Of a DNA stretch of 64,000 nucleotides, positions 34,583 through 55,277 are shown piece after piece. The number at the start of each line of letters is the position of its first letter. Positions within the stretch are counted from its first letter, which is position 1. The DNA is from Omnitrophica WOR_2 bacterium RIFOXYA2_FULL_38_17 (GTDB lineage: Bacteria; Omnitrophota; Gorgyraeia; Zapsychrales; Zapsychraceae): the NCBI GenBank assembly GCA_001805965.1, contig MHHG01000073.1, positions 18,080 through 82,079 on the forward strand. Direction: 5' to 3'. The notes under the pieces are model-generated. The model saw only the letters and a list, made by a program, of their open reading frames with translations, made no database searches and was not told the origin of the DNA. The position numbers were made by a program, and so were the translations under genes.

Positions 34583-37531
34583 TCAGGCACTGTTTCGAAT
34601 CAACTCTTTACGATTATTCCCAAGCAACATCAGAATGTTCGACACAGGAGTAACATTTATTATAACAGGTACGAAGCCTTCAATATTCAGGTCATAAATT
34701 GGCTGTTCATCCAGCGGAAGAGGGATACCCGCGCTATTTCTTTTTATCTGAAGGTCAAGCATGTCAGAATTAAAATCAATACCACCGACATTCTCCGATC
34801 CTTTTTCATTTGTAACGCCACCTTCATTAACTGTTGATGTTTCATTGTTCAATAATACTGCCTTTTCGATCCCTTCAAGGTCACCGGCAGCAATCTGATC
34901 AAAATACGCATCGATCTTAGCCAAATGCTTATCAATGTTCCCTTGCGCGTCCTGTTTCAGCTTAATAAGTGTTGCCAACAAATATCCGGCTTCCTCACGT
35001 TCAAAATCATCTTCGCTCATTCCCTCATAAACAGCTCTTACGACCTCAATATCGGAAGAGAGATCTCTTAATTCACCCGAAAAACCTTTTTCTTCAACCA
35101 AGTCAATCCTTTGGGAAAGATCTAAAACTCTGCGCTGGATATCATCTGTTCTCCCGATCTCATAAGAAGATTGAAGCCTAACAACATTTTCGATATTTTT
35201 CATGACATCTTGCCCTTCTGCCCCTAAACCTTCTGCCATCTTCCTAGCAGTTTCTATCGCATAATTCGCTTCCCCTTTGACAAAGTCACTTGACCTTTCA
35301 AAAATACGTCGCAATGTAAAAGGCTCAGCAGGATCACTAAAATTTGTTACCACGAGTCCATACTTTTTGAAGATCTCCCCATCTGAATACTCCACATTCT
35401 CCCCTTCAGCCTTAAAATCAACCATGCGTCTTGCTGGAGTAATGCGGTCCAAAGCATATCCAAAAGATATCAGCTCACTTGCCTCAATCTTTGAAATATT
35501 AAGCAAATTAACCACATAATCACGCACCTTGATCCTTAAAGAGTCTGGATTGGTTATTTTTCCTTCACTATTAATATCTGTAATAAGAAGCACCGGCAAT
35601 AGATTGTTAGGTATGTTTATCCCTATATTTGGCAATACAATCGTAGCCACAAAATCAATTGGATTTCCGGGATGATGAGCAGCAATGATCAAAGCAAGAC
35701 CCAAAGCCTCATCAGGCTCAAAGCCCGCCTCCTCCAGACGTTCTATTGTAGCTATCATGCTCAAAGTACCATGCATAATAACTTTTTCCACCAGAGGATT
35801 ACCCTTATTTGCCAGCATAAAAGCATAGATAGCCTCAGCCCTTTCTACTGCGTCTTCATGGGAAAGCCCTAAAATCCGTTCCCCTATCTTAATCCACAAG
35901 TCAATAAACTTGATTTTAAATGCAGGGTCTGAAACATCCATTGCATAGGCAAGGTCATGGGTTTCGGCAAATAGTTCGCCAAAGGACGCCATTTCATCAG
36001 ATATCAAACCACGCTCATGAAGGGATTCAATAAGAGCCCTGTGGGAATTAATATGGGCAGCCACTGGCGGCGAATAATTCTCAGGCCTTCTGTTGGATGC
36101 AATTGCAGCCGCATTTAATAATTTATCTTTATATGCTACGAGAACCGGCCTGCCCTTACCCTGCAGGTCCTCAAGCCTTACTTCCGGATTATCAATTAAA
36201 CCAAGCATTGACCGGTCCGGCCCTTTCAAAGAAACAGGATTTTCGGCTAAATATTTTTCATTATTAGGATTCGCTTCCAACATATTTACATCAACTTCAA
36301 ATTTCTTGGAAAGCATTGAACTATCGCCAAGATTCTTCTCAACATATGCTTTTTGTTCAGATCCGAGGTTCTCAACTGGGCCCTTAACCGTCTCAATAAT
36401 TTCCGGAAGAGTTTCACCGAACTGATTCTGAGAAATAAAACCTCCGGAAAAATATTTCCTTGGGATGATCTCCTGGCTTATCGGATCATAATCTTCCTTT
36501 ATATAATTAAAAACCCCCTGCTTAAAAGCCTCAATATATTGGCGATAGATCTTTTTGCTCACATCTTTATCCTCGAGATCTATACCTTTCACCTTATTCT
36601 TATCAACATAGACCTGGCCCATCAAAGATTGTTTTAAGTTGCTCTTATACCAAGCGGCAAGTATCATGGAATTATACATCTGCCTTAACTTAATAAATGT
36701 TCTGCCATGATTTATCTCGCGCTCGATCTCAGGGATAAGGATCTCTTTAATGACCTCTTTGATCTCATCCAACTGCTGTGGATTCTCAGCCCTCTCTTCT
36801 TCAGCGCCTAAAATATCTGACATTTCAGAATCTTCAAATGTGCTCCTAAAAGCCATATAGTCTGATTCAAGCATAACCTTAAGATTGCTTTCAAGAACAA
36901 AAACCATTCCTTGGTCCTCATATAACACGGCTTTATCCGGAACGATCCAAACCTTATTAAATGTATCCATGGGTATATCCGTGATCCCGTATCTCTCATA
37001 AGCTATCTTATAAACTCTTGCCCAGAATTCTTCTCCCAATTCATCCTCCGGATACATAAGGGATGCTGTTAACTGCTTCAACAAATAATCCTGAGCCAGA
37101 AGGTCCCTTCCCATTTCCGTATGCCCAAAATTCTCTGGAATGATCCTGTTATTTTCATAAGGGGATAAATTGACCCACATATCTTCTTCAGGAGTAGTCA
37201 ATGATGCCAAGAAATACTTTATAAGCTTTTCAGATTCATATTTAAGCTCTTCATCCTCAATTTGAGAATCTCCGGTATCAATTATGAATTTAAAGCGTAA
37301 TGGATTTTCAGGAAATGTTTGTATGCCTTTAATTACAGCAGGGTAAAAAGCTGGGGTTACTGTTACTATTGTTCCTACTTGCGGCAGCGAGAAAATACTT
37401 TGAGCATAAACATTTGCCGGCAATATAAAATTAGAGGTCACAAATGCTAAAACTATTATAAAAACCGATAATTTGTATACAAAATTGTCAGATTTTTTTC
37501 TTAAGTAAATTGCCATCTCATACCTCAACAT
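34583..37531 (-). CDS. Large exported multidomain protein (982 aa); paralog of 51738..55277 over the N-terminal ~330-aa domain and the C-terminal ~70-aa module
   Basis: Sec-type signal peptide with VYA/Q cleavage site. The N-terminal domain is highly similar to that of the 1179-aa protein. The central region has His/Asp motifs (AAHINSHRA...ETHDLAY...IMHG...AAHHPG) suggesting an HD-like hydrolase. The C-terminal conserved module is NVGGIDFN...IKR...IP.P...[12 protein letters not shown] followed by a short charged tail. Confidence 0.7.
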   Translation of the reverse strand: [982 protein letters not shown]

Positions 37532-37628
37532 TTTTAAACAGTATCATCTTAATAATACTATTTATTGCAATTAAAGTATAAAATGCAATAGCTACACAAA
37601 CAAGGGTATGAAAAAAATACTATGTTTA

Positions 37629-54700: not shown

Positions 54701-55277
54701 CCGGAACGATCCATACTTTGTTAAAAGTATCAATGGGAATATCCTCAGTGCCATACTTTTCGTAAGCCAGATCATATATCCTGTCCCAAAAACTACGGCC
54801 TATTTTTTCATCAGGATTCAGCAAGGACGCCGTTATCTGTTTAAGCAGGTAATCCTGAGCAAGAAGGTCGCGGCCCATCTCGGTATAACTGAATTTTTCC
54901 GGAATAATACGATCATTTTCATACGGGGATAAATTAACCCACATCTGATCTTCGGGAATAGTTAAAGATGCAAGAAAATACTTGATCAATTTATTATATT
55001 TTACCTGCTTTTCATCATCATCAAGGACCTCATCACCCTTGCTAATAATAAAATTAAACTCTAACGGGTTACTGGGATTGATCTCAACTGCCTTTATAGA
55101 GGCGGGTTCAAAAAGATCACTCAATCCAACAAGGGTGCCAACACTTGGAAGCCCTAATAAACTTTGAGCTTGATAAAGTGCAACCTGAGCATATGCCGCA
55201 GGTAAAATTTGAACAGATAAAAACGCAAATACTATCAAAACTGATACAAATTTTCTAAAATGTGTTGATATCTTCAT
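51738..55277 (-). CDS. Large exported multidomain protein (1179 aa): shared N-terminal domain, putative carbohydrate-binding middle region, glycogen/starch-synthase-like GT5 domain and conserved C-terminal module
   Basis: Sec signal peptide with AYA/Q cleavage site. N-terminal ~330 aa paralogous to 34583..37531 ([15 protein letters not shown], [37 protein letters not shown]). The central region matches GlgA: [14 protein letters not shown] (KTGGL box variant), [68 protein letters not shown]. C-terminal NVGGIDLN...IKR..IPFP...[12 protein letters not shown] module plus a charged tail. Confidence 0.75.
   Translation of the reverse strand: [1179 protein letters not shown]

Follow-up and report, generated by a model that had tools for sequence, protein, structure and literature searches.

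Two open reading frames (ORFs), here called A and B, in a 64,000-nucleotide (nt) stretch of the Omnitrophica WOR_2 bacterium RIFOXYA2_FULL_38_17 genome (contig MHHG01000073.1, positions 18,080 to 82,079; hereafter the window) encode proteins that share both of their ends and differ in between. What are these common ends for, and where do the proteins work? A first-pass annotation, made from the sequence alone, had described the pair as giant exported paralogs with a common N-terminal domain and a short common C-terminal module. Here we report that A and B belong to a large family in which a constant frame, made up of a leader, an N-terminal domain (N-domain), and a C-terminal module (C-module), encloses a freely exchangeable passenger, and that the two ends of this frame are strictly coupled. 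We also weigh what the frame might do. To a model in which the whole family is exported by the Sec pathway, with the N-domain and C-module serving as a common targeting or anchoring handle, we give an even chance of being correct.

The relationship between the two ORFs was established by BLASTP, which aligns their N-terminal blocks at 50% identity over 438 amino acids (aa) (E=4e-128) and their C-terminal blocks at 45% identity over 80 aa (E=9e-15), and which shows no similarity between their middles. Both ORFs lie at the coordinates given in the first-pass annotation and on the minus strand, each is uninterrupted and begins with ATG, and every motif quoted for the shared blocks is present, including IKR and PVIIN.TPV. 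At 982 and 1179 aa, however, the proteins are large rather than giant. No third family copy was found in the window by tblastn. The DNA encoding the two N-domains is only 67% identical, and its longest common word is 15 nt. These values indicate old paralogs that have been held similar by selection on the protein, and A and B are thus not the products of a recent duplication or gene conversion. Nor is the similarity one of low-complexity sequence. The same DNA comparison led us to drop the idea that a conserved N-domain breaks assemblies and so produces the many database entries marked "partial."

The exact protein was recovered on 15 independent contigs, and identical proteins are present in "Omnitrophica WOR_2 bacterium GWF2_38_59" and related metagenome-assembled genomes (MAGs). 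Databases list proteins identical or nearly identical to A in Omnitrophica WOR_2 MAGs as hypothetical, whereas B is entered as hypothetical or as a "glycogen/starch synthase," with no mention of its leader or frame. An artefact, be it chance similarity, low-complexity sequence, or mis-called or fused genes, has a vanishingly small probability of explaining these observations. Nothing speaks in its favour: many database entries are partial, yet complete genes are common, and the strength of the match between A and B, the existence of thousands of homologues, the recovery on 15 contigs, and the long uninterrupted reading frames that start with ATG refute it.

To define the extent of the family, a word-indexed search was made with the N-domain of B, which returned 1,351 proteins. 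Nearly all come from Candidatus Omnitrophica/Omnitrophota MAGs, every one is annotated as "hypothetical," and many of the entries are partial. When 1.84 billion representatives were searched exhaustively with HMMER, 8,410 matched at E<=1e-3 and 6,826 at E<=1e-30. Because each of the 8,410 represents a cluster at 50% identity, the family comprises at least 8,410 clusters. In the best 150 representatives, the N-domain occurs once, at about residues 1-370 of proteins that range from 420 to 5,312 aa. Furthermore, a scan of GTDB species genomes yielded at least 478 family loci. Every title among these that names a phylum names Omnitrophota, and the others belong to generically labelled MAGs (for example, "uncultured Planctomycetales"). 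In essence, the family is thus restricted to Candidatus Omnitrophota. The labels Sciscionella, Pacearchaeota, or Bathyarchaeia are attached to a few N-domain proteins (P0050, P0060, P0118). At 53-60% identity to proteins of Omnitrophota, all such entries, including those labelled Planctomycetales, are probably mis-binned or generically labelled Omnitrophota contigs.

Statistics on family loci were drawn from the best 80 of the at least 478 loci, which contain 89 family ORFs. One genome, OFTM38, supplies 8 of these 80 loci (L009, L011, L018, L030, L032, L043, L059, and L063), and a genome can therefore hold at least 8 copies. The N-domains of random family pairs are 57% identical, and those of the eight OFTM38 paralogs are 61-76% identical (median 66.5%). 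This higher identity within a genome, seen in a sample that is biased towards relatives of B, hints at a lineage-specific expansion in which passengers were swapped, or at co-evolution with a shared partner. Family genes are commonly arranged in tandem, as seen at L007, L008, L013, L049, L052, L056, L060, L075, and L084 and at ten further loci that have a C-module at their upstream edge. The spacing between tandem genes is as short as 9-18 nt (L013, L075), and a 1,110-aa family member directly follows the gene for P0082, a small member described below.

Members are built as a leader, the N-domain, a passenger, the C-module, and a short, mildly acidic tail. In the 89 ORFs, 28-128 aa (typically ~35-45) separate the first available start codon from the N-domain. 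We characterized 227 family leaders with a home-made analysis rather than with SignalP. Their median length is 39 aa, and the net charge of the n-region has a median of +3 and is at least +1 in 98% of cases. The uncharged run, with the c-region included, has a median of 18 residues, position -1 is occupied by A, S, or G, and Q is the most common residue at +1. Throughout the family, the residues at -3 and -1 are small and a proline precedes the site. The basic n-region, hydrophobic region, and small -3/-1 residues of substrates of Sec and type I signal peptidase are thus shared by A, B, and the 227 leaders, in agreement with the earlier assignment of the VYA/Q and AYA/Q segments, which follow positively charged and then hydrophobic residues, to putative Sec-type leaders. 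No lipobox and no twin-arginine (S/T-RR-x-F) motif occurs in any of the 227. From the distribution of charge and the small residues at -3 and -1, we infer that the proteins are translocated by Sec and cleaved.

At the other end, the C-module (~65 aa) occupies the extreme C-terminus of 49 of the 57 complete locus ORFs and of 110 of 145 representatives. A six-frame search of 925 kb found 12 C-module segments that lack an N-domain. Ten of these start at the edge of a locus, another comes after masked sequence, and the last (L048) is preceded by an in-frame TGA, such that no clear stand-alone C-module was found in the 925 kb. At L048, the TGA (8650..8652) splits a family gene into a 917-aa part with the leader and N-domain and a 1,432-aa part with the C-module. 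An ATG lies ~30 nt past the TGA, and the interruption may be due to sequencing error or recoding, or may mark a pseudogene or a split gene.

The smallest form of the architecture is P0082, a 438-aa protein encoded by a complete gene on a 32-kb contig, which consists of the leader, N-domain, and C-module and has no passenger at all. Among all members, the passenger ranges from 0 to ~4,800 aa. The frame is thus viable alone, and it is far more conserved than the passengers. In the AlphaFold2 (AF2) model of P0082, C-module residues 371-390 have a predicted local distance difference test score (pLDDT) of ~80-92, which is compatible with a C-module that may pack on the N-domain. The hydrophobic stretch of the C-module is rich in proline and passes a threshold for transmembrane-like segments in only 77 of 162 complete members. 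The tail that follows has a median length of 26 aa and is mildly acidic (17% D+E versus 9.5% K+R). A [LIVM]-S-x-[LIVMA] sequence is present within the last 9 residues of the tail in 41 of 146 members, compared with a background of 3% (~9-fold), and B itself ends in ...LEVSLN. Many longer tails also carry an earlier (E/D)-L-S-(Y/F) motif, and the tail may be a third conserved element.

Two other possible architectures were considered and set aside. One is that several units of this family are strung together in the giant proteins, which is unsupported because the N-domain is single and N-terminal in the best 150 representatives and in the locus ORFs, none of which has two N-domains. The other is that a transmembrane helix located after the N-domain returns the passenger to the cytoplasm. 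A lax threshold still left 119 of the 162 complete members without any internal hydrophobic segment in the region from leader to C-module.

The shared regions of A and B did not match any Pfam-A or NCBIfam model at E<=1, and an N-domain profile built from 122 sequences had zero matches to PDB sequences at E<=10. AF2 produced a confident model of the B N-domain (scores in Table 1), in which ~8 helices and 3 beta-hairpins form a mixed alpha/beta structure. When this model was compared by Foldseek with PDB folds, which cover solved structures only, the best match had an E value of 0.07 and template-modelling (TM) scores did not exceed 0.17. Scattered matches to pore-forming toxins (NheA, Cry6Aa, and colicin Ia), at TM scores of ~0.1, were rejected as noise. 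The first-pass annotation had been unable to assign the shared block to a family, and this remains so after searches of Pfam-A, NCBIfam, PDB sequences, and PDB folds. A homologue search with a C-module profile returned only fragments shorter than 135 aa, which are uninformative on architecture.

Conservation within the N-domain is pronounced, with 27 invariant and ~60 nearly invariant positions, a good number of which carry polar or aromatic residues. They include W77, N79, K110, Q111, D182, E224, R235, and Q236, as well as the TEMGRD and PRKYFSGG blocks. Perhaps, then, the N-domain is the functional core, an unrecognised enzyme or ligand-binding domain to which the passengers and C-module are accessory. 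An identity of ~57% across the phylum and the existence of P0082, which lacks cargo, would agree with such a role. However, no catalytic motif was found in the N-domain, nor did Pfam, NCBIfam, or the PDB offer a family match or fold relative. Furthermore, this explanation accounts neither for the strict coupling to the C-module nor for dozens of unrelated passengers per genome on one enzyme. We therefore regard it as improbable.

The passengers are mutually unrelated, and a forced global alignment of the middles gives ~23% identity. Those that could be recognized include enzymes of sugar metabolism. The passenger of L019 is a PGI that matches the E. coli enzyme with E=3e-160, and other loci carry a UDPGP-like domain with PGK (L007), a class V FBPase with TIM (L073), UDPGP with PGM (L060), PGM (L020), or GH116 (L035 and L036). 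A pooled scan of 49 middles added enolase, PPDK, and NDK. Further passenger types comprise receiver domains, HATPase_c, PP2C, CofD/YvcK-like and DRAT-like domains, methyltransferase, and HEAT repeats. The window also contains unfused pgk and tpiA genes, and the fused PGK and TIM share only 23-37% identity with the products of these genes, which suggests that they represent old, separate lineages.

B and its orthologue carry a GT5 glucan synthase. As the first-pass annotation had noted, the middles of A and B diverge and that of B contains this domain, which matches PF08323 at residues 538-783 with E=2.5e-25 (90 bits versus a cut-off of 22.7). The match to TIGR02095 (glgA) scores 270.6 bits, below the NCBIfam cut-off of 328.45, and Agrobacterium GlgA (PDB 1rzu) aligns over its catalytic half with E=2.5e-31. 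GlgA proteins have the motifs KTGGL, RLxxQKG, FEPxGLxQL, and TGGLxDTV. B keeps three of these (RLxxQK, FEPxGL, and TGGL), and the first reads KRAGL instead of KTGGL. Although GlgA models and structures can be aligned with B along the whole of residues 538-1063 and B retains the R/K, E, and TGGL motifs, B differs from characterised GlgA in its leader, its 330-aa N-domain, an extra stretch of ~180 aa (residues 357-537), and its C-module, in addition to the altered motif and the score below the cut-off. The extra stretch looks beta-rich from its sequence and could be a candidate carbohydrate-binding module.

The passenger of A resisted assignment. It has no family match in Pfam, other than an unrelated one at E<=1, and no match in the PDB. 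The first-pass annotation had called this region HD-like, a proposal that is unproven: the evidence consists of a cas3_HD match at E=0.086 and of "HD," "HG," and "HHPG" motifs seen by eye, and the passenger did not pass a test with HD profiles. Its only homologues are close orthologues and one stand-alone protein of 371 aa (P0243, from JGI), which is 33% identical over 42% of the A passenger query and has no leader, N-domain, or C-module. This type of passenger thus exists unframed as well.

The genes beside A and B offer limited guidance. Both glgC and pgk are located where they had been reported, next to A and B, respectively. The order glgC-A is kept in an orthologue of 79% identity, a pairing that is conserved in this close relative only, and no terminator-like site was found between the two genes. 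In the 153-nt gap between B and pgk, a perfect sigma-70 consensus (TTGACA-16-TATAAT, 12/12) is present at 51666..51639 on the minus strand. This suggests that pgk-tpiA is transcribed from a promoter of its own rather than together with B, which weakens an operon link, and the adjacency of B and pgk may therefore mean little. A 16-bp perfect inverted repeat (AGGTAAATAGGTGGCA/loop/TGTCACCTATTTACCT) lies at 55357..55392, between the start of B and a 139-aa ORF (55394..55813). On the plus strand, where no gene ends, it resembles a terminator.

More broadly, family genes have no recurrent neighbour. When the neighbours of the 80 loci were clustered, the largest cluster was represented at 7 of 80 loci and corresponds to a generic receiver protein, and we therefore rejected the idea of a conserved partner gene beside family loci. 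Together with the promoter consensus between B and pgk and the narrow conservation of the glgC-A pairing, this makes doubtful the significance that had been attached to the pgk neighbour. Neighbourhoods at the 80 loci are of a housekeeping character (for example, the trp operon, murA, ABC ATPases, and receiver proteins). The remainder of the window is likewise core chromosome, with genes for SMC, LepA, RpoD, DnaG, PheA, ETF with acyl-CoA dehydrogenase, and a Wzy-like ligase. The features of A and B and the context genes are collected in Table 1.

Table 1. Features of ORFs A and B and of adjacent genes. All ORF coordinates are positions in the window. pTM, predicted TM score.
Feature	Position	Strand	Description
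ORF A	34583..37531	-	982 aa; family member, passenger without assigned family
A leader, aa 1-43	37403..37531	-	Basic n-region (net +3), hydrophobic core, VYA/Q site; signal-peptide-like
A N-domain, aa 44-372	36416..37402	-	Conserved family domain; no PDB relative
A passenger, aa 373-908	34808..36415	-	No Pfam or PDB match; motifs include LDRITP
A C-module, aa 909-976	34604..34807	-	Followed by 6-aa tail and stop codon at 34583..34603
ORF B	51738..55277	-	1179 aa; family member with GT5 glucan-synthase passenger
B leader, aa 1-30	55188..55277	-	Hydrophobic core and AYA/Q
B N-domain, aa 31-356	54210..55187	-	AF2 model pLDDT 85.3, pTM 0.85
B aa 357-537, between N-domain and GT5	53667..54209	-	No Pfam match at E<=1
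B GT5/GT-B glycogen/starch-synthase domain, aa 538-1063	52089..53666	-	TGGLIDSV kept; KTGGL replaced by KRAGL
B C-module, aa 1103-1170	51768..51971	-	Followed by 9-aa tail (...LEVSLN) and stop codon at 51738..51767
glgC (ADP-glucose pyrophosphorylase)	37686..38903	-	No leader; 154 nt upstream of A; context, not a family member
pgk	50403..51584	-	Canonical, unfused; downstream of B; context only
tpiA	49622..50377	-	Canonical, unfused; downstream of B; context only

Other genes of the window encode proteins with large unmatched parts. Two adjacent minus-strand ORFs located just upstream of glgC (38960..41299 and 41342..43375) specify large proteins with TPR only in their last ~200 residues, and their N-terminal parts of ~550 aa have no Pfam match. 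A 592-aa ORF (58928..60706, minus strand), also without a Pfam match, lies near a Wzy_C O-antigen-ligase-like gene (61833..63155).

If the family is exported, as we give an even chance, the leader would be a Sec signal peptide and the whole protein would leave the cytoplasm. The handle formed by the N-domain and C-module would then dock every member onto a common envelope structure or export machine, or alternatively would link family members to each other, and the passenger would bring the activity. Judging from the P0082 model, the two ends of the frame may meet. The frame is constant across dozens of paralogs and no partner is encoded beside any one of them, both of which a common handle would explain; any partner would have to be shared and, given the lack of a conserved neighbour, encoded elsewhere. 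B would accordingly act as an exported or displayed alpha-glucan synthase-like enzyme, and A might be an exported enzyme, possibly a phosphohydrolase. The periplasm, the cell surface or a surface layer, and a prey cell are all candidate destinations that would fit. The first-pass annotation had suggested that exported enzymes or adhesins of modular build share an N-terminal targeting or binding domain and form a family, which is borne out with regard to modularity, family size (8,410 clusters), and signal-peptide features. Its adhesin component is unsupported because the recognisable passengers are enzymes and signalling domains.

Several observations weigh against export. Many passengers depend on ATP, nucleotide sugars, or sugar phosphates, compounds that one would not expect beyond the cytoplasm; such passengers include PGI, PGK, enolase, TIM, FBPase, PPDK, NDK, PGM, UDPGP, the GT5 synthase, receiver domains, HATPase_c, and PP2C. 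The close match of one PGI to that of E. coli and the catalytic motifs that B keeps mark some passengers as ordinary enzymes. A adjoins glgC, whose product makes cytoplasmic ADP-glucose. The neighbours of the 80 loci did not reveal a partner machine or anchor, and 16 of 20 passengers scanned singly had no Pfam match, which leaves the repertoire mostly unrecognised.

The dependence of classic cytoplasmic enzymes on ATP, ADP-glucose, or sugar phosphates is also the main evidence for a tether on the membrane's cytoplasmic face. According to this explanation, the N-terminal hydrophobic segment would remain uncleaved as a membrane anchor, or would be a helix that targets the protein to an internal structure. 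The frame would then keep metabolic and signalling enzymes at the cytoplasmic side, in a membrane-bound metabolon that serves glycogen and lower glycolysis. The position of A after glgC, conserved in a relative, and the placement of family genes within housekeeping operons such as trp and murA would fit such an arrangement. In addition, a fused PGI might be the sole copy in some genomes, since PGI is present in only 67 of 176 complete Omnitrophota genomes (10.64898/2026.06.07.730766). However, basic residues precede the hydrophobic core and the next ~20-25 residues are nearly uncharged, which places the bulk of the protein outside by the positive-inside rule. The small -1/-3 residues and the proline before the site resemble cleaved signal peptides throughout the family, and the uncharged run, at a median of 18 residues, is short for a stable anchor. 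Moreover, unfused pgk and tpiA genes are available in the window, and the fused PGK and TIM look like lineages that separated from them long ago. We consider such a tether unlikely.

The signal peptide and the ATP-dependent passengers would be reconciled if the proteins were delivered effectors. These would form a polymorphic secreted set for prey or host cells, with enzymes that work in the prey cytoplasm, an N-domain that directs trafficking, and a C-module that acts as a signal for secretion or release. Chlamydia offers a parallel in a secreted GlgA that acts in the host. A constant trafficking end, a variable payload, many paralogs, and tandem arrays recall polymorphic toxin and TpsA-type systems. 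A predatory or parasitic life has been proposed for Omnitrophota, and those of their giant proteins that are predicted to be extracellular contain these enzyme domains as well (10.1101/2023.11.21.568195). Yet neither the 80 loci nor the window presents toxin/immunity pairs, an adjacent transporter, or a mobile-element context, and the genes reside in the core chromosome. The passengers are metabolic rather than toxic, no Pfam or NCBIfam model of a secretion domain matched A or B, and the variable part is central, whereas in classical polymorphic toxins it is the C-terminal tip. Delivery into other cells is thus, in our view, a rather unlikely role for the family.

The family can be compared with the giant proteins of the same phylum. 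In the giant "Archaeovorins" of Omnitrophota, West-Roberts et al. reported domains of the TIM, PGI, FBPase, PGM/PMM, aldolase, and PPDK types; these were predicted to be extracellular, but the authors suspected an error in topology (10.1101/2023.11.21.568195). A 2026 preprint on 916 long proteins lists starch synthase, PGM, receiver, HATPase, methyltransferase, and HD domains among them and puts the share with a signal peptide or transmembrane helices at 94% (10.64898/2026.06.07.730766). These giants and our family share the phylum, signal peptides, a predicted extracytoplasmic location, and the puzzle of glycolytic domains that appear to be "outside." Their domains also overlap (starch synthase PF08323, PGM/PMM, PGI, TIM, FBPase, PPDK, receiver, HATPase_c, methyltransferase, HD, and HEAT). 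In contrast, the giants are far longer, with genes of >90,000 bp (10.1101/2023.11.21.568195), and have many transmembrane helices and SecA-like and C39/S8 peptidase domains, whereas family members span 438 to at least 5,312 aa, and an internal hydrophobic segment is absent from most of them. Archaeovorins exceed ~30,000 aa and combine many transmembrane helices with SecA-like and peptidase domains and with GT/MT/GH/NUDIX content; A and B have 982 and 1179 aa, no internal hydrophobic segment that was noted when their sequences were read, and no SecA or peptidase match. A text search of both papers (10.1101/2023.11.21.568195 and 10.64898/2026.06.07.730766) found no mention of the N-domain or C-module, and our literature searches turned up no other description of the frame. 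The frame thus appears to be undescribed as such, earlier work having noted only that enzyme domains of this kind occur in giant Omnitrophota proteins.

TpsA/CdiA proteins and the TANFOR-domain proteins of Bacteroidetes (PMC7073777) also have an extended conserved signal peptide, a constant N-domain of ~300 aa, a long variable remainder, and many paralogs. Unlike in our family, the TpsA structure is a beta-helix rather than a predicted mixed alpha/beta fold, and TpsA is encoded adjacent to its transporter TpsB, whereas neither a TpsB-like gene beside family genes nor any recurrent neighbour was found at the 80 loci. The family N-domain matched no TPS/haemagglutination domain and is not predicted to be a beta-helix, and the family differs from TpsA and polymorphic proteins in that its variable part is internal, its C-terminus is constant, and it has no Pfam or NCBIfam match. 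The C-module resembles C-terminal sorting domains, such as the C-terminal domain (CTD) of the type IX secretion system (T9SS), PEP-CTERM/exosortase, LPXTG, GlyGly-CTERM, and MYXO-CTERM, in being short and terminal, in having a hydrophobic stretch, and in occurring on unrelated exported proteins. However, its tail is acidic rather than basic, its hydrophobic stretch is rich in proline, and, unlike known sorting signals, it is strictly tied to one N-terminal domain. Exosortase-type signals combine a signature motif, a transmembrane helix, and a basic cluster. No NCBIfam or Pfam model of a known C-terminal sorting signal matched the C-termini of A and B at E<=1, and the module measures ~65 aa compared to the beta-sandwich of 80-100 aa in T9SS domains. 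It is also too small for an autotransporter (type V secretion system), whose C-terminal beta-barrel comprises ~250-300 aa, and the N-domain model is not a barrel such as inverse autotransporters have at their N-terminus. By analogy, the family would be one of modular exported proteins with constant targeting ends, similar to the TpsA, polymorphic, and sorting-signal systems in logic only.

A bolder form of the export reading, which we entertain only tentatively, is that the family represents an undescribed sorting or assembly system that operates across the phylum. Its handle would place dozens of enzymes per cell outside the cytoplasmic membrane. For example, a subunit might insert its C-terminal strand into its own N-domain or into that of the subunit that follows. 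An enlarged periplasm, a surface layer, or attached prey could be the site. The cargo would amount to a near-complete set of sugar-phosphate, glycolytic, and glycogen enzymes, together with signalling domains of the kinase and receiver types. If this were true, the central carbon metabolism of Omnitrophota would be partly extracytoplasmic.

Omnitrophota are widespread, mostly uncultured, very small bacteria that are thought to be predators or parasites. Their giant proteins drew attention partly through glycolytic domains predicted to lie outside the cell, a result that their authors doubted. The family described here provides a simpler handle on the same puzzle, as its members can be proteins of ~1 kb with one leader, constant ends, and one enzyme of an ordinary kind (PGI, PGK, or a glucan synthase, for example). 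For annotators, two new domain models would bring thousands of "hypothetical" or misnamed entries into one architecture. If the frame is a sorting or assembly device, it would be a new one, with thousands of substrates across the phylum, and the site of carbohydrate metabolism in Omnitrophota would become directly testable.

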